A stretch of DNA of 64,000 bases, from contig DASZZF010000023.1 in the NCBI GenBank assembly GCA_035543375.1, positions 9,538 to 73,537 of the forward strand, in the 5' to 3' direction. This stretch comes from Candidatus Limnocylindria bacterium (lineage in GTDB: Bacteria; Chloroflexota; Limnocylindria; P2-11E). How positions within the stretch are numbered: position 1 is the stretch's first letter; every line of letters begins with the position of its first letter. Below, piece after piece: positions 18,038 through 35,601 of this stretch. The translations under genes and the position numbers were made by a program. The notes beneath the pieces are model-generated. The model did no database searches. It was not told the DNA's origin and worked only from the letters and a program-made list of their open reading frames with translations.

Positions 18038-18041
<4 letters not shown>
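16932..18041 (+). CDS. secreted or lipid-anchored type-I periplasmic binding protein (Leu/Ile/Val-binding-protein-like fold)
   Basis: Signal peptide MRALATCLVLLLTAAC. Alternating beta-alpha pattern typical of PBP type I (VTALLDLSG...KIVDVAGS). Family assignment is weak. No ABC permease or ATPase genes are nearby. Confidence 0.55.
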
Positions 18042-20987
<2,946 letters not shown>

Positions 20988-27763: not shown

Positions 27764-29001
27764 TGCGCCGGTCGAAGGTCGAGGATCTCTTCCGCCGGGA
27801 AGCCCGAGCGACGGACGAGCGCGAGCACGTCCTGCGCGTGCGCCGCATCGCGCGTGTCCACGATGACGTCGAGGCCGACGCGCCCGAGCGTCGTATATGG
27901 GCCAAGCCGGTGGATGCCGACATGCAAGATGTTGATGTGCTCGTCGCCGAGGATCCCGGTGAGGAGATGCAGCTGATTGGGCTTGTCGTCGAGCCAGGTC
28001 CGGAACGCGAGGTACCGGCCCGCGCTCGCCAGACCCTGCTGTACGACCTTGCCGAGCAGATTCGGGTCGATGTTCCCGCCGCTGACGATCACGCCGACCC
28101 GCTTGCCCGCGAGCGCTCCGTTGTCCTCGAGGAGCGCGGCGACGCCGGCGGCGCCCGCGGCCTCGGCGAGCAGCTTGTGCCGCTCCAGGAGCACGACGAT
28201 GGCGCGCGCGATGGCCTCGTCGGTGACCACTCGCATGCTCGCGCCACGCGCGCGGGAGATCGCGAGCGTGCGGACCGCAGGCTCGCGGACGGCGATGCCG
28301 TCAGCGATCGTCGCCGATCCGCCGGGTGCGATCGTGCCGGTCCGGATCGCGTCGGCAAATGCGCTCGCCCCGCTCGCCTGCACGCCGATCAGCTCCGCGC
28401 GCGAGCCCGCTTCCGCGAGGGCAAGCGCCGTCCCCGCGAGCAACCCGCCGCCCCCCACGGGTACGACGATCGCATCGAGGTCCGGCCGGTCCTCGAGCAT
28501 CTCGCGCGCGACGGTGCCCTGGCCCGCGATCACCGCGGGATCGTCGAACGCGTGAACGTACAGCGCACCGCGCCGGCCGCCGATCTCGAGCGCCGCCGCG
28601 TGCGCCGCGTCGTAGTCGGCACCGGTGATGACCACTTCCGCGCCGGTGCGCTGGATCGCCGTGAGTTTCGCGAGCGGCACACCGCGCGGCAGGACGATGC
28701 AGGCCGGGATCCCGAGCGCGCTCGCGGCGACCGCGACCCCCTGCCCATGATTGCCGGCCGACGCCGTGACGACCCCGCGCGCGCGCTCGTCCGCGTCGAG
28801 CGCGAGCAACCGGTTCAACGCGCCGCGGATCTTGAACGCGCCGGTCCGTTGCAGGTTCTCCAGCTTCAGGTGCACCTCGCAACCGGTGAGCGCCGAGAGC
28901 TCCGCCGACGCAAGGAGCGGTGTGCGTTCGACCCGGCCCGCGAGCGCCGCCGCGGCGCCGCGAACGGTCGTGTGGGCCGCGGCCGGCGGGGCGATCCTCA
29001 T
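27760..29001 (-). CDS. ilvA: threonine ammonia-lyase (threonine dehydratase) with C-terminal ACT-like domain
   Basis: [17 protein letters not shown] (PLP lysine), [19 protein letters not shown], and a C-terminal regulatory domain. ATGA and GTGA overlaps with both neighbours. Confidence 0.88.
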
Positions 29002-30209
29002 GACGCGAGCACCCGGTCGTACGCTCGGCGCAGCCGGCAGACGCCTTCGGCGATGCGCTCGGGCTGCGGCCAGCTGTACGAGAAGCGGAGGGCGCTCGAG
29101 TGGTCGCGCGTGACGGCGAACGCGTCGCCCGGCACAAATGCGACGCCCTCCTCGAGCGCCAGATCGAGCAGCCGCCGTGCGGATACGCCCTCCGGCAGCG
29201 TGACCCAGAGGTAGAAGCCGCCCTCGGGATCGTTCCAGTGGACGGCGGTCCCGTCGAACGCCCGAGCGAGCGCGCTGCGCGCCCGCGCCTGCTTCTCCGC
29301 GTAAAGGGCGCGCAACGCGTCCACATGCGTCTGGACCGGGTCGCGGTGGAACTCGACGGCAAGCCGCTGTGAGAACGTCGAGGTGCAGGAATCCATCGTC
29401 TGCTTCGCGGCGGCCATCCGGCTCACCGTCGCGCGATCGGCGATGGCCCAGCCGAGGCGCAGACCGGGCAAGAACGTTTTCGAGAACGTGCCCACGCTGA
29501 CGATGCCGGTGTTGACGGCGAGCGTCGCGAGATCCGGGATCGTCTCGCCGCGGAAGCGCAGCGCGCCGTACGGGTCATCATCGAGGACGAGCGCTCCGTA
29601 GCCGGCCGCGAGCGCCAGGAGCTGCTCGCGCCGCTCGTACGACAGCGTCGCGCCCGTCGGGTTCTGGAAGTTGGGCACGACGAAGAACAGCCGCGGTCGG
29701 GCTCCGGCGGCGCGAATGAGCCGCTCGGCTTCGCGGACGTCCAGGCCGTCGTCGTCGATCGGAACCTCGAGAATCCGCGCGCCGTGGTTCCGCAACGCGG
29801 ACAGGGCGTTCGCGAACGCCGGCGACTCGACGACGACGAGGTCGCCGGGCCGGATGAAGACCCGGCAGGCGAGATCGATCGCCTGCAGCGCGCCGGCCGT
29901 CACGATCACGTCCTCCGCGCTGACGCGCGCGCCGCGTGCCCGCGCGGACACCGCGATGATCTCGCGCAGCTCCCCATCGCCCTCGGTCACGCCGTAGCCG
30001 AGCGCGTGATGGCCGTCGCGAGCGAGCACGCGCTCGACGAGGCCGGCGATGCCGACGAGACCGAGCGCCTCGGGGGCTGGCGCGCCGACAGCGAACGAGA
30101 TGGTCGAGGCGGGAGCGTTCGCCAGGATGCCGATCGTCTCGTCGATGAACGAGCCATGCACCTCACGCGTGGTGATCCGGCCGAGCGCGGTCGGCTGCGC
30201 GACGATCAT
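28998..30209 (-). CDS. fold-type I (class I/II) PLP-dependent aminotransferase
   Basis: [10 protein letters not shown]...LDDDPYG...[14 protein letters not shown] (PLP Lys in the SxSK context). ATGA overlaps to ilvD and ilvA. The track ORF (to 31730) is trimmed. Confidence 0.85.
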
Positions 30210-31882
30210 GCGGTCGTCACGGCACCGCTCGACGCCGAGCCGACGAGCTTCGCGTACTTCGCGAGCGCACCGGTCCGATACCGGGGGGTGGGCGCCCGCC
30301 ATGTCGCGAGGCGGGCCGCGAGCTCCTTTGGATCGACGGCGAGGTCGATCCGACGCTTCGACACGTCGATCGTGATGCGATCGCCGTCGACGACGAGGGC
30401 GATCGGACCGCCGACCGCGGCCTCCGGCGCGACGTGCCCGACGGCTAGGCCATGCGTCGCGCCGCTGAACCGGCCATCGGTGACGAGGGCGACCTGTTCG
30501 CCGAGTCCCGCACCGACGAGCGCGCCGGTGACGGCGAGCATCTCGCGCATCCCGGGGCCACCCTTCGGTCCCTCGTACCGGATGACGAGGATGTCGCCTG
30601 CATGCACGGAGCGGCTCTCGATCGCGGCGAACGCGTCCTCTTCGCGGTCGAACACGCGCGCGCTGAAGGTGCGGGTCGGCGTGGCGTGGCCGGCGACCTT
30701 CGTAACCGCGCCGTCCGGTGCGAGCGTGCCCCTGAGGATCACCATTCCGCCGGTCGCCGCGAGCGCCCGCGCCAGCGGGCGGACCACTTCCTGGCCCGCT
30801 GTCTCGCGCGCCGCGCTCGCCTCGTCGCCGATCGTGCGACCAGTGACCGTCATGGGGTCGCGATGGAGCAGACCGGCTTGGAGCAGCCGCTGCAACACGA
30901 GCATGATGCCGCCGGCCTGGTCCATGTCCGGAGCGGTGAAGCGGCCCCACGGCTTCATGTCGGCGAGGAGGGGCGTCTTCGCGCTGATGCGATCGAAGTC
31001 GTCGAGGTCGATGCCGACGTTCGCCTCGACCGCGACGGCGAGCAGATGGAGGACGGCGTTCGTCGACCCGCCCGTTGCCATGACCGCGGAGATCGCGTTC
31101 TCGATCGACTCCTTCGTGATGATCCGTCTCGGCCGCACATCGTCCTTCAGCAGCCGCATCACGAGGCGGCCGGCCTCGCGCGAGACCGCCTCGCGCCGCG
31201 GATCGAGCGCCGGCACGCCGGCCGATCCCGCGGGCGAGATGCCCATCGCCTCGAATGCGGTGGCCATCGTGTTCGCGGTGAACTGGCCGCCGCACGCGCC
31301 CGCGCCGGGGCAGGCGTTCCGCTCGAGCTCGGCGAGCCCTTCGTCGGACAGCGTGCCGGCCGCGTGCGCGCCGACGCCCTCGAAGACGTCGCCGATCGTC
31401 ACGTCCCGGCCGGCGAAGCGGCCGGGCATGATCGACCCGCCGTAGAGCATGAGTCCCGGCAGGTCGAGTCGCGCGAGCGCCATGACGCTCGCCGGGATCG
31501 TCTTGTCGCAGCCTGAGATCGCCACGAGCGCATCGAGCTGATGGCCTCGCGTCACCAGCTCGATGCTGTCGGCAACGAGCTCCCGCGACACAAGCGATGC
31601 CTTCATCCCTTCGGTGCCCATCGCGATGCCGTCGGAGACCGCGATCGTGTTGCACTCGACGGGCGTCCCGCCGGCCTCGCGGATGCCCTCCTTCACCCAC
31701 TCCGCGACGCGGCGCAGATGGATCGTGCACGGCATGATCTCGATCCAGCTATGGGTCACGCCCACGAGCGGCCGCGTGAAGTCGACATCGGTGTAGCCGG
31801 CGCCGCGCATCATCGCGCGCGCGGGCGCGCGGCTCGGCCCGTCGATCATCACGCGGCTGTTCGCGCGGGGGTCGCTGGTCAC
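30206..31882 (-). CDS. ilvD: dihydroxy-acid dehydratase
   Basis: [15 protein letters not shown]...[10 protein letters not shown]...TDGRFSG.THG. 558 aa, GTG start. Confidence 0.92.
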
Positions 31883-31910: not shown

Positions 31911-32105
31911 TCATATCCAGGCGGGCAGGTCGGCGTCGGGTTTGCCGTACGCCTCGACGCAGATCGTCATGAGCACGACGTCGCTGAGATCGTCGGGAAC
32001 GCACCCCCGCCGCGCGAGCAGATGCTCGGCGACGACAAGCTGCTCGTCGCCGAACCGGAAACCGAATCGATGCAGGCGCTCGGCGAGCCGCTCGCGGGCG
32101 GTCAT
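31911..32105 (-). CDS. 64-aa hypothetical protein, paralog A (unrecognised family)
   Basis: The ATG overlaps the ilvC stop (ATGA). About 86% G/C at third codon positions by hand count. Aligns without gaps to ORF 35232..35426 and shares the C-terminus [16 protein letters not shown]. Confidence 0.65.
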
Positions 32106-33148
32106 CGGCCGGATCCCGCGGCGACCGGCTCCCGCGGAGGAAGCGCATCCGTGCCGAACTCACGCTTCGGGAGCCACGGCATCATCTCGCGGAGCTTCCG
32201 GCCGACGCGCTCGATCTGCGAATCGCGCTCGCGCGCGCGCGTCGCGAGCAGCTCGGGTGACCCGCGGCGCGATTCTGCGATCCAGCGCTTGGCGAAGCTG
32301 CCGTCTTTGACCTCGGCGAGCACGTCCCGCATGGTCTGGCGCACGCGTGCGTCGATGATCCGCTTGCCGGAGACGTAGTCCCCGTACTCGGCGGTGTCGC
32401 TGACGGAGTAGCGCATGTAGCTGAGGCCGCCCTCGTACATGAGGTCGACGATGAGCTTCATCTCGTTCAGGCACTCGAAGTAGGCGATCTCCGGCTGGTA
32501 GCCGGCCTCCACGAGGGTCTCGAAGCCGGCCTTCACGAGCTCGGAGATGCCGCCGCAGAGAACGGCCTGCTCCCCGAAGAGATCGGTCTCGACCTCCTCC
32601 GCGAACGTCGTTTCGATCACGCCCGCGCGCGTCGAGCCAACGGCCTGGGCGTACGCGAGCGCGGTGCGCTTGGCCTTGCCGCTCGCGTCCTGGTGCACGG
32701 CGACGAGGGCCGGCACCCCGCGCCCTTCCGCGTAGAGCTCGCGCATCCGGTGGCCCGGCGCCTTCGGCGCGATGAGGACCACGTCGACATCCGCCGCGGC
32801 CTTGACCTCGCCGAAGTGCACCGAGAAGGCGTGTGCGACGACCAGCGTCTTGCCCCCCATGGACGGCGCGATCCGCTCGTACACCTCGCGGTGCTGCGGA
32901 TCGTGGACGAGCAGCACCACGATGTCCGCGCTCTTGGCCGCGTCGACGACCTCACGGACCGCGAAGCCGTCGCGCTCGGCGACCGCCCAGCTCTTGCTGC
33001 CTGCCCGCAGGCCGACGATCACGTCGCAGCCGCTGTCGCGAAGGTTCTGGGCGTGGGCGTGCCCCTGGCTGCCATAGCCGATCACCGCGATCGTCTTGCC
33101 CGCGATATCGCTTGGATCCGCGTCCTTGTCGTAGTAGATCGTTGCCAT
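32102..33148 (-). CDS. ilvC: ketol-acid reductoisomerase
   Basis: [11 protein letters not shown]...[30 protein letters not shown] lies upstream of ATG 33148. The track ORF start 33283 is rejected. Confidence 0.92.
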
Positions 33149-33159
33149 GTCTTGCCTCC

Positions 33160-33414
33160 TCAGCGTGTGGTCGCGTCGTCGTCGCGAAGGTGAGCCTGCC
33201 GTACATCGATGAGCGTCGTGAACTGCCTGAGCGCGAGAGCCGCTTCGTGCGGGATCGCCTGCGCGCGGATGAAGACGGTCCATCCACCATCGGCGCTCGT
33301 GTCTGCCCGGAAGGACTGCAGCCCGAGCCGTCGCCGGCGGACCACCGACAGCACGCGCTCGATCGCGCCGGGAGCGGCGTCGACTGAGAGCTCGAACACG
33401 TGCCGGTCGCTCAC
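33160..33414 (-). CDS. ilvN: acetolactate synthase small (regulatory) subunit, short single-ACT IlvM/IlvN-like form
   Basis: 84 aa. (M)[34 protein letters not shown]... parallels E. coli IlvM (..ETLERVLRVVRHRGFHVCSM). GTGA overlap with the ilvB stop. Confidence 0.7.
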
Positions 33415-35141
33415 CCGGCCGGCTCCTCGATGAGATCGGCGTTCGCGCCGCCGGGCGGCACGATCGGCCACACGTTCGCCTCGCGCTCGATGCGGACGTC
33501 GATGACCACCGGACCGGAGTGGCTGCGCGCCCGCTGCAACGTCGCCTCGAGATCGCGGCGCCGTTCGACGCAGAGACCGAGCACGCCGTAGGCCTCGGCC
33601 AGCTTTACATAGTCGGGGCTGCTGATGGGCGTCTGCGAGATGCGGCCGTCGTGGAACAGCTGCTGCCATTGGCGAACCATCCCGAGGTAGCCGTTGTTCA
33701 GGATCGCAAGCTTCACCGGCGCGCCCTCCTGGACGGCGGTGCCGAGCTCGTGGATAGTCATCTGCGATCCGCCGTCGCCGGCGATCGCCCAGACCTCCGA
33801 GGCCGGACGTCCGAGCTGCACGCCGATCGCCGCCGGCAGCGCGTAGCCCATCGCCCCGAGACCGCCCGACGTGATGAAGCGGTCGGGATGGGTCAGCCGG
33901 AGATGCTGCGCCGCCCACATCTGGTGCTGGCCAACGTCGGCGACGAAGTACGCGTCGTCGCTCGCGGTCTCGCGGATCGCGCGCACGACGAGCCGCGGCG
34001 GCAGCTCGATCCGGTCTTCGTTGTCGCTCAGTCGCGGCCGCGCGCGCTCGGCCGTCGCGCGCGCGCGCCACTCGGCTCGGGCTGTCCGCTCGAGACGCGC
34101 GGCGAGGGCGAACAGGACCGCCCCCGCGTCGGCGACGATCCCGACCGCCGTAGGCACGTTCTTGCCGATCTGCGTCGGGTCGATGTCCGCATGGATGATC
34201 TGCCCCCGCGGCGCGAACGCGCTGAGCTTGCCCGTGACGCGGTCGTCGAAGCGCAGACCGACGCCGAGAATGACGTCAGCGTCGTTGACGATCCGATTCG
34301 CGGTCGCGCTGCCGTGCATGCCGAGCATCCCGACCGCGAGCGGATGGCTCTCGTCGATCGCGCCGATCCCGAGCAGCGTCGTGACGACCGGCGCGTCAAT
34401 GCGCTCGGCGAGCGTGCGCAGCTCCGCGTGCGCGCGGGAGAGACGGATACCGTGCCCGGCGATGATCACCGGTCGGCTGGCCGAGGCGAGCAGCGCGACC
34501 GCGCGCTCGAGGTCGGCGACATCGGCGCCACCGAGCGCCGCGTCGGCGGCGCTGCCGCCGGTCTCCGGTGCAGCCGAGCGGAGCTGGACGTCCTTGGGGA
34601 TATCGACGACGACCGGGCCGGGCCGGCCGGAGCGTGCGATGGAGAACGCGCGCTGGATCGTCGGCTCGATGTCCTCGACGCGCTCGACGAGGAACGCGTG
34701 CTTCGTGATCGGACCGACCATGCCGATGACGTCGGTCTCCTGGAACGCGTCGCGACCCATCAGCGGCGACGACACCTGGCCAGTCACGGCGACGACCGGG
34801 ACGGAGTCCATGAACGCGCATGCCAAGCCGGTCACGAGATTCGTTGCGCCCGGTCCGGACGTCGCGGAGCAGACCCCGACACGCCCCGTGGCCCGCGCGT
34901 ACCCGTCGGCCATGTGGGCGGCGCCCTGCTCGTGCCGGACCAGGACGTGGTGGATGCCGGGGTGATCCGGCAGCGCGTCGTACATCGGAAGGGTCGCGCC
35001 GCCGGGATACCCGAAGACGTTCTCGACCCCGGCGCGCTCGAGCGCGCGCCAGATCAGGTCGGCGCCACGTTGAGCGACGACCGACGCGTCGATCGCCGGC
35101 CCAGGCTGGTGCACCTGGTGCGCTGCTGCGAATGCCGGCAT
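33411..35141 (-). CDS. ilvB: acetolactate synthase large subunit
   Basis: [29 protein letters not shown], and the TPP motif [15 protein letters not shown]...GDGGSQM...NN. GGAAGGGGAG SD lies upstream of ATG 35141. Confidence 0.92.
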
Positions 35142-35231
35142 TTGGTGCTCCCCTTCCGTCCGAGCCGTCGCCCTCACGAGGCGAGCTGCTCGACTGCGTT
35201 GTGACCGAGGACCGCGAGATAGGTCACTTCG

Positions 35232-35426
35232 TCAGATCCAGGCCGGCAGTTCGACGTCTGCCTTGCGGTATGCCTCGACGCAGATCGTCATGAGCACGAG
35301 GTCGGTGAGTGACGTGTGATGCGACGTGTGCGCGTGGACGATCCGCTCGGCGTGATCCAAGCGCTCGCCTTCGAAATGCATTCCCAGGCTCGCCAGACGC
35401 TTCGCTAGCTCACGTCGCGCTTCCAT
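35232..35426 (-). CDS. 64-aa hypothetical protein, paralog B (unrecognised family)
   Basis: ATG 35426 is preceded by a GGAAGGGGA SD. Lies between the attenuator terminator and ilvB. About 53% identical (hand alignment) to ORF 31911..32105. Confidence 0.6.
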   Translation of the reverse strand: MEARRELAKRLASLGMHFEGERLDHAERIVHAHTSHHTSLTDLVLMTICVEAYRKADVELPAWI

Positions 35427-35448
35427 GTCCGATCCCCTTCCGATAACG

Positions 35449-35477
35449 AAAAGACCTCCCGGTGTTCCGGGAGGTCT
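35449..35477 (-). terminator. intrinsic terminator of the ilvB-operon attenuator
   Basis: Perfect 11-bp stem AGACCUCCCGG-AACA-CCGGGAGGUCU followed by UUUCGUUAU on the minus-strand RNA. It sits between the leader ORF and the first structural ORF. Confidence 0.65.
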
Positions 35478-35499
35478 TTGATGGTTCCAGTGGTGTGAC

Positions 35500-35592
35500 T
35501 TACGCGGTCTCGGTGTTCCTCCCAGCGTCGTTCGGGCCCCCGATAACGATCGGGAGCTCAATGACGACGATGCCAAGGACGAGATCGTGCAT
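35500..35592 (-). CDS. ilv leader peptide MHDLVLGIVVIELPIVIGGPNDAGRNTETA
   Basis: 30 codons, with 10 Ile/Val/Leu among residues 4-17. Its 3' half contains CUGGGAGG, which is complementary to the 5' arm of the downstream terminator. Confidence 0.65.
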   Translation of the reverse strand: MHDLVLGIVVIELPIVIGGPNDAGRNTETA

Positions 35593-35601
35593 CTGCGACG
35601 A

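Follow-up and report, generated by a model that had tools for sequence, protein, structure and literature searches.

A 64,000-nt stretch of a Candidatus Limnocylindria genome (assembly GCA_035543375.1, contig DASZZF010000023.1, positions 9,538 to 73,537; hereafter the window) carries on its minus strand an operon for branched-chain amino acid (BCAA) biosynthesis, in which two 64-aa open reading frames (ORFs), ORF-A and ORF-B, are embedded. Judged from their sequences, both are genuine, conserved, protein-coding paralogs under purifying selection, with a ratio of non-synonymous to synonymous substitution rates (dN/dS) of about 0.2, and appear to be free-standing homologs of the accessory subdomain II of type-1 2-isopropylmalate synthase (LeuA). 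That the small proteins are coding, conserved and LeuA-subdomain-II-like is, taken as a whole, highly probable. They make up a previously undescribed small-protein family, a variant of a known LeuA module in a notable regulatory context. The features on which the description rests are:

31911..32105, minus strand: ORF-A, 64-aa small protein, A-type paralog (from the translation)
35232..35426, minus strand: ORF-B, 64-aa small protein, B-type paralog, first cistron behind an attenuator (from the translation)
35433..35441, minus strand: Shine-Dalgarno-like GGAAGGGGA of ORF-B, 6 bases 5' of its ATG (from the sequence)

Coding evidence and range of the family

An earlier note on this DNA had described the two ORFs as gap-free paralogs of equal length belonging to an unrecognised family. 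The translations, the lengths and the gap-free alignment were reproduced (BLASTP E 6e-20); the similarity estimated there by hand stood, but the count of about 34 identical residues came down to 32/64. The signs of translation listed in the note were found as well. The ATG of ORF-A overlaps the ilvC stop codon as ATGA at 32102-32105, which places ORF-A for translational coupling with ilvC, and ORF-B is preceded by the strong Shine-Dalgarno motif (35441-35433), which also stands before the ilvB ATG at 35141. The GC content at third codon positions is 0.859 in ORF-A and 0.781 in ORF-B (noted earlier as about 86 and 78 %), with 0.83-0.92 in ilvB, ilvN, ilvC and ilvD, in a window of 70 % GC overall.

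The comparison of dN/dS across orthologs that the note had proposed points in the same direction. By the Nei-Gojobori method, applied to the last 57 codons, dN/dS was 0.22-0.25 for the A-type (19 sequences) and 0.16-0.22 for the B-type (25 sequences), with dS around 0.53. Substitutions also follow a 3-nt periodicity: between the window and the sister contig L046, which has the same gene order, first, second and third codon positions differ 5/2/24 times in ORF-A, 2/0/14 times in ORF-B and 14/10/100 times in ilvC, and the same third-position pattern is seen in ilvN and ilvD.

Both ORFs share the 28-nt stretch TCGTGCTCATGACGATCTGCGTCGAGGC, found where the note had placed it (31951-31978 and 35272-35299). 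The weight given there to its identity at the DNA level was not borne out, as the same codons vary synonymously over 25 ORF-B orthologs (CTC/CTG, GTC/GTG, ACG/ACC, GCC/GCG/GCA, TAC/TAT), which rules out gene conversion or an RNA element as its cause. From the codon frequencies of the ORF-B orthologs, the chance that nine identical residues use identical codons was estimated at around 0.1. The identity therefore needs no cause at the DNA level, given conserved residues and a strong codon bias, and the dS between the window's ORF-A and ORF-B (C-terminal part 0.40, N-terminal part 0.81) is in keeping with codon bias acting on identical residues.

High-GC DNA gives many spurious ORFs, A-type ORFs are seldom called by gene callers (3 clusters), and a shared identical block could be taken as the mark of an RNA or DNA element; hence the ORFs might be chance products, such an element, or relics of leuA fragments. 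Against this stand the dN/dS and substitution periodicity, a length and frame kept across a bacterial class, the existence of monocistronic loci with a dedicated attenuator, the synonymous variation inside the block, and the fact that neither the window region nor any of four related loci matches Rfam. We regard this explanation as extremely improbable and effectively excluded.

Orthologs of ORF-B form 46 clusters with 76-97 % identity, nearly all of 64 aa (49-76 with alternative starts) and all unnamed, while six-frame hidden Markov model (HMM) and tblastn searches recovered the A-type copy directly 3' of ilvC in 19 distinct loci. In all loci the ORFs stand alone, with start and stop codons of their own. 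When 1.84 billion representatives of 50 %-identity clusters were searched with the family profile, 23 matched (E <= 0.001); two of these, the long repeat proteins P0052 and P0071, were judged to be repeat-driven HMM artefacts and rejected. Scanning 185,579 species genomes yielded 29 loci, which belong to Candidatus Limnocylindria or to unclassified Chloroflexota metagenome-assembled genomes (MAGs) except for one contig binned as Saccharimonadales; a few divergent members lie on contigs of 54-57 % GC. The named homologs are all annotated as 'hypothetical protein', and the family is very narrow: going by its named members, it is confined to Candidatus Limnocylindria (Chloroflexota). The exceptional contig (L011, DATJHW010000147.1), deposited as Candidatus Saccharimonadales, carries the leuB, leader and B-type synteny and near-identical sequences of Limnocylindria MAGs, and is probably misbinned.

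Neither ORF-A, ORF-B nor any of 29 family members is matched by a Pfam or NCBIfam model, in the case of Pfam even at E <= 10. The literature likewise yielded no description of the small proteins or of a stand-alone form of subdomain II. The description of the family as unrecognised holds in so far as no model covers it; it is not unrecognisable, however, considering its profile homology to the accessory subdomain of LeuA (see below).

In the widest alignment of the family D42 and V50 are invariant, and R10, L11, L23, L45, P61 and W63 nearly so; the C-terminal tail is conserved as R-x-P-[DE]-x-D-L-P-x-W-[VI]. The cysteine that the note had stressed, within LMTICVEAY, is invariant only in the window's clade and is replaced by Ala, Ser, Thr or Val in the wider family, which weakens the idea of an Fe-S or metal chaperone based on it. 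A His cluster, H-x-H-x-x-H-H, possibly a metal site, occupies residues 31-38 of ORF-B (35313-35336, minus strand), in the loop between helices 2 and 3; it is kept in B-type proteins of the window's clade (IVH-x-H-x-P-HH) and absent from the A-type and the wider family. One divergent member on a contig of 54 % GC (L044, 3695-5069) lacks the P-x-W-V tail and lies 176 nt 5' of a gene resembling that of citrate synthase, an enzyme that likewise condenses acetyl-CoA.

Relationship to the accessory subdomain II of LeuA

The profile searches that the note had proposed led to an end-to-end match. Aligned by hhalign with the subdomain II of about 70 unrelated metagenomic LeuA proteins, cut out for this comparison to rule out a lineage-specific fusion, the family profile matched over 55 gap-free columns (residues 4-58; Prob 95 %, P 2.5e-8). 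Run over 6283 ORFs from the loci of those proteins, the family HMM found nothing off target: it matched family members and, at the position of subdomain II, more than 15 LeuA proteins. The motif R-L-x-x-L-G-x-x-[LF]-x-x-x-x-L ... D-x-x-L is common to the small proteins and to LeuA subdomain II.

Two independent loci tie the family to particular synthases. The HMM matches the last 50-55 or so residues of HMGL-like proteins that are encoded immediately 3' of family members in L034 (30.9 bits) and L042 (37.4 bits, 54 gap-free columns). Both are type-1 2-isopropylmalate synthases cut short directly behind the accessory domain; they lack the leucine-binding LeuA_dimer domain and span positions 4-389 of the 516 of NCBIfam NF002086. 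The matched residues are covered by the HCS_D2 match in Pfam and by the NCBIfam alignment to 2-isopropylmalate synthase, and the stretch is colinear with the G-K-x-S-G-R...L-G segment of the solved structures 3rmj, 6e1j and 6ktq. Searched alone against the PDB, the L034 subdomain II found 3rmj at E 0.26, the query being too short for significance. The truncated synthases lie at 7195-8349 in L034 and 550-1740 in L042; in L034 a 139-aa ORF with no Pfam match follows. In all loci the small proteins are stand-alone, i.e. not part of a polypeptide following an HMGL-like TIM barrel.

AlphaFold2 predicts three helices (residues 3-13, 20-33 and 42-53) packed into a bundle, and a tail of low confidence, at a predicted local distance difference test score of 82 and a predicted template-modelling score of 0.66. 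Foldseek searches with two models gave no match at E < 0.4; methylthioalkylmalate synthase 6e1j and homocitrate synthase 6ktq recur in both lists (template-modelling score 0.55-0.64, root-mean-square deviation 2.1-4), but at E around 2. PDB sequence searches with a single protein returned only a ribosomal protein (E 1.2); those with the profile brought up 6e1j no better than at E 1.8, besides RbfA and designed repeat proteins, which were artefacts. The idea of an acyl carrier protein, prompted by a weak PDB match and by the S-L-T-D-L motif, was rejected for want of the serine of a D-S-L motif, to which phosphopantetheine is attached where helix II begins: the residue before the invariant D42 varies (T/S/H/P/R), the one after it is hydrophobic, and the PDB match itself had come from the L034 LeuA fragment (E 0.65).

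Each accessory domain of isopropylmalate synthase forms a cap over the active site of the partner chain, and catalysis depends on it (PMC9860122). For the Neisseria enzyme it has been shown that subdomain II is required for catalysis and that leucine allostery runs via Glu353-Arg470 (regulatory domain) and Asp375-Arg32 (catalytic domain), the substitutions R470Q and R32Q largely abolishing inhibition (PMC9860122). E21 of the small proteins aligns with Glu353, given an index-to-native offset of 6 for 3rmj that was inferred from two matching acidic residues, and the counterpart of the invariant D42 is the conserved Asp in the V-x-D-x-D-L helix (helix 3).

Attenuation, gene neighbourhoods and possible partners

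Upstream of ORF-B lies an element with the parts of an amino acid attenuator:

35500..35592, minus strand: BCAA leader peptide ORF, 30 aa, Leu/Val/Ile-rich, MHDLVLGIVVIELPIVIGGPNDAGRNTETA followed by a stop (from the translation)
35518..35526, minus strand: putative antiterminator arm GCTGGGAGG, a copy of the terminator 3' arm (invariant in a 10-locus alignment)
35445..35479, minus strand: terminator, a 13-bp hairpin AGACCTCCCGG-AACA-CCGGGAGGTCT plus T-run, ending about 20 nt 5' of the ORF-B start

The RNA fold of 35440-35600 has a free energy of -70.1 kcal/mol (z -4.5). A leader rich in Ile, Leu and Val was present upstream of every B-type gene examined, and behind it all 25 distinct B-type loci of the window's clade carry a hairpin, GACCTCCC-loop-GGGAGGTC-TTTT, which ends 22-36 nt 5' of the B-type start in all but one locus (gap 99 nt). 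In the 10-locus alignment the terminator arms are invariant too. GCTGGGAGG looks like a classical antiterminator arm, from which we infer a pairing switch. The attenuator is conserved and matched by no Rfam model, and its control of ORF-B is quite likely. A simple promoter and terminator scan made no calls, though the hairpin is obvious in the RNA fold.

The neighbourhood statistics, likewise proposed in the note, tie the family tightly to BCAA genes. In minus-strand order the window operon runs leader peptide, terminator, ORF-B, ilvB, ilvN, ilvC, ORF-A, ilvD, aminotransferase, ilvA and leuC; its main enzyme genes and the separate leuA are:

33411..35141 (ATG) or 35177 (GTG), minus strand: ilvB, acetolactate synthase large subunit (ORF list; ortholog with TPP_enzyme_N/M/C)
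33160..33414, minus strand: ilvN, 84-aa ACT-only small subunit (translation; orthologs with ACT_5)
32102..33148, minus strand: ilvC, ketol-acid reductoisomerase (ORF list; orthologs with KARI_N and KARI_C)
30206..31882, minus strand: ilvD, dihydroxy-acid dehydratase (ORF list; orthologs with ILVD_EDD domains)
19221..20924, minus strand: leuA, type-2 full-length 2-isopropylmalate synthase (Pfam HMGL-like, IPMS_D2 and LeuA_dimer)

The window LeuA shares 74 % identity with that of L003 by BLASTP and scores 840 bits against NCBIfam NF002991. A second, divergent HMGL-like synthase gene (18038-19300, plus strand) converges on leuA, the 3' ends overlapping by about 80 nt; all its NCBIfam scores are far below the cut-offs, and its product has a subdomain-II-like C-terminus of its own. 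The best NCBIfam matches of the operon's aminotransferase (28998-30209, minus strand), themselves below cut-off, are not to IlvE but to the aminotransferase-like domains of MocR-type regulators; the gene may encode an unusual BCAA aminotransferase.

A-type genes always lie directly 3' of ilvC, with gaps of -1 to 38 nt, and precede leuA in 18/19 distinct loci, the exception being the window together with its sister contigs, where ilvD comes next. The earlier note had remarked that a large cofactor-dependent enzyme gene follows each ORF; this is correct for the window, where ilvD lies downstream of ORF-A and ilvB downstream of ORF-B, but the ilvD neighbour is limited to the window and its sister contigs. 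In deeper lineages the small gene likewise stands between ilvC and leuA, the latter being a truncated type-1 gene. The members of a divergent subfamily come after a gene for a 201-aa protein that consists of the ketol-acid reductoisomerase N-terminal domain only, with an aminotransferase gene next. Such loci are L036 (494-1296), L037 (4646-5448) and L043 (5429-6225); the protein covers model positions 1-191 of 337, its end is overlapped by the small-family gene, and it may be a conserved truncated paralog or the result of a recent deletion.

B-type genes occur in three architectures. In the first, shared by the window and six other loci, the attenuator and the B-type gene are followed by ilvBNC and the A-type gene onward. 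In the second, a gene for a PucR-type HTH_30 protein of about 200 aa comes some 13 nt after the B-type gene, then a regulatory region, ilvBNC, the A-type gene and leuA; between the HTH_30 gene and ilvB lie a palindrome (GTGCA-N3-TGCAC), a TTGACG box and a second ILV leader of another sequence (MQRLVVVVLIGIVLIEGDGRRLGG) with a terminator of its own. In the third, found in nine loci, there is only the attenuator and the B-type gene, with a convergent gene about 10 nt past its stop codon, and in at least three of these MAGs the rest of the operon lies on another contig. In addition, a third subfamily is monocistronic behind an ILV leader of its own, in an unrelated neighbourhood. The elements between the HTH_30 gene and ilvB were seen in L001 (8206-9120), L005, L006, L013, L018, L024-L029, L032 and L034, and the palindrome also stands 5' of ilvC in L041. 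In these related genomes, attenuator and PucR-type regulator together look like a two-tier regulatory cascade.

From the second architecture one might take the small proteins, or at any rate the B-type, for partners or co-factors of a short PucR/CdaR-type HTH_30 regulator of ilvBNC acting at the GTGCA-N3-TGCAC operator, such that B induced by starvation would switch the regulator's activity. In around 10 loci the B-type gene and, within about 13 nt of it, the gene for an HTH_30 protein without the usual N-terminal sensor domain stand under the same attenuator, the palindrome, the TTGACG box and a second attenuator are conserved between regulator and ilvB, and in L027 and L032 a leader of the same kind belongs to the regulator gene itself. 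However, the window and the six loci like it keep the B-type gene directly 5' of ilvB, with neither regulator gene nor palindrome at the locus or, for the window, anywhere along it; this absence was read at the loci only, and a regulator elsewhere in the window-like genomes could not be checked. Moreover, the B-type gene stands alone in nine loci, A-type copies are never beside the regulator, and the fold derives from an enzyme subdomain rather than a regulator domain. The small proteins themselves have no Pfam match to HTH_30, which belongs to the neighbouring gene of about 200 aa in other loci. Overall, a role as regulator partner seems unlikely to us.

Gene order could also speak for accessory subunits of IlvC or of the IlvB/IlvN acetolactate synthase instead of LeuA. 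The A-type gene invariably comes immediately after ilvC, with overlapping stop and start codons in the window; the divergent subfamily follows the reductoisomerase N-terminal-domain protein; the B-type gene precedes ilvB in the window's clade and on a distant contig of about 57 % GC; and IlvN is here a minimal 84-aa ACT domain. Yet this order may simply reflect history, should a leuA duplication have given rise to the gene between ilvC and leuA; the B-type gene is often unlinked from both ilvB and ilvC, and Pfam and NCBIfam reveal no homology to a known reductoisomerase or acetolactate synthase subunit. We consider subunits of this kind improbable, and more so than a regulator partner.

The best overall explanation, which we hold tentatively, is that LeuA-subdomain-II small proteins modulate a pathway enzyme, most likely LeuA, in trans. 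The family would probably have originated by partial duplication of a leuA gene beside ilvC, which would account for the position of the A-type. The copy 3' of ilvC would have stayed translationally coupled to it, and the second copy, the B-type, would have come to stand, as first and at times sole cistron, behind an attenuator with a Leu/Val/Ile leader peptide, to be made when BCAAs run short. The free subdomain would then dock in trans on a BCAA enzyme, most likely a LeuA-family synthase, at the surface of the catalytic barrel or regulatory domain that LeuA's own subdomain II normally touches, and so tune catalysis or loosen end-product feedback. Taken by itself, the part that makes the proteins trans-acting modulators of LeuA is rather doubtful. 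It is tempting to speculate on a starvation-induced decoy of LeuA's allosteric relay module, in which a shortage of Leu, Val or Ile would relieve attenuation and release a free copy of subdomain II, the second copy being stoichiometric with IlvC, and the free copy would compete with the built-in one for the regulatory or catalytic domain and uncouple end-product inhibition; this is an unlikely variant. The more general suggestion of the earlier note, an accessory or regulatory subunit of BCAA biosynthesis, is plausible.

Several observations weigh against modulation of LeuA by a released subdomain II. The Foldseek matches fall short of significance and are equalled in score by many unrelated three-helix bundles; neither ORF-A, ORF-B nor the 29 members match Pfam HCS_D2 (PF22617) or IPMS_D2 (PF22615); and by hhalign no significant similarity was detectable to the subdomain II of type-2 LeuA, the actual neighbour of A-type genes. 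LeuA has nothing that corresponds to the conserved tail or to the LMT-x-x-VEAY helix face, so that the partner could be something else. In the window leuA lies 11 kb away from ORF-A, displaced from the place it holds in other genomes, and B-type genes are found more often beside ilvB or the PucR-type regulator than beside leuA.

Significance and comparison with known systems

Small proteins routinely escape notice or stay 'hypothetical'; in this case the ancestry of a 64-aa family leads back to one particular functional module of an allosteric enzyme that has been studied well, and one copy is placed, by its sequence, under a dedicated attenuator that senses amino acids. Should the small proteins work in trans on LeuA or on some other enzyme of the pathway, enzyme subdomains could be released as independent, separately regulated modulators, a principle relevant to feedback deregulation in amino-acid production strains, and BCAA synthesis in Limnocylindria, an abundant uncultured class of soil and freshwater, would have an extra regulatory layer. 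The decoy, if real, would found a class of its own among small-protein regulators of enzymes, that of the 'subdomain mimic'.

Like the new proteins, IlvN, IlvH and IlvM are small and encoded in ilv operons, and they modulate a BCAA enzyme, as the new proteins may. In contrast, they have an alpha/beta fold of ACT (plus ALS_ss_C) domains, whereas the new proteins are predicted to be all-helical and show no sequence or profile similarity to them. The earlier note was right that the ORFs are neither IlvN or ALS_ss_C proteins nor leader peptides: they have no such Pfam or NCBIfam match and an all-helical prediction, and a separate, real ilvN lies at 33160-33414; as to leader peptides, they are 64 aa long and under selection at the protein level, both lie downstream of the terminator, and the true leader is at 35500-35592.

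The E. coli ilvGMEDA, ilvBN and leu operons are controlled by leader-peptide transcription attenuators. The element upstream of ORF-B has the same classical parts, i.e. a short ILV-rich ORF, alternative pairing arms and a terminator. Unusually, the first cargo behind the B-type attenuator, and in nine loci the only one, is a 64-aa protein and not an enzyme.

LeuA-family isoforms without the regulatory domain escape feedback, such as the plant methylthioalkylmalate synthase 6e1j and splice isoforms of banana isopropylmalate synthase (PMC12994207). A rearrangement of the accessory and regulatory modules of LeuA is a known way to altered feedback, but in those cases the enzyme itself is truncated, while in Limnocylindria an extra accessory module would be expressed separately.

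The closest counterpart is the accessory subdomain II of 2-isopropylmalate, citramalate and homocitrate synthases itself, part of which is covered by HCS_D2 (PF22617), and which shares with the small proteins its length, pathway and gene neighbourhood, and the three-helix layout predicted for them. Unlike this subdomain, which links the catalytic barrel to the regulatory domain, the small proteins are free-standing at 64 aa, with a helix-3 face (LMT-x-x-VEAY) and a P-x-W-[VI] tail of their own, and, in the B-type, with probable attenuator control.

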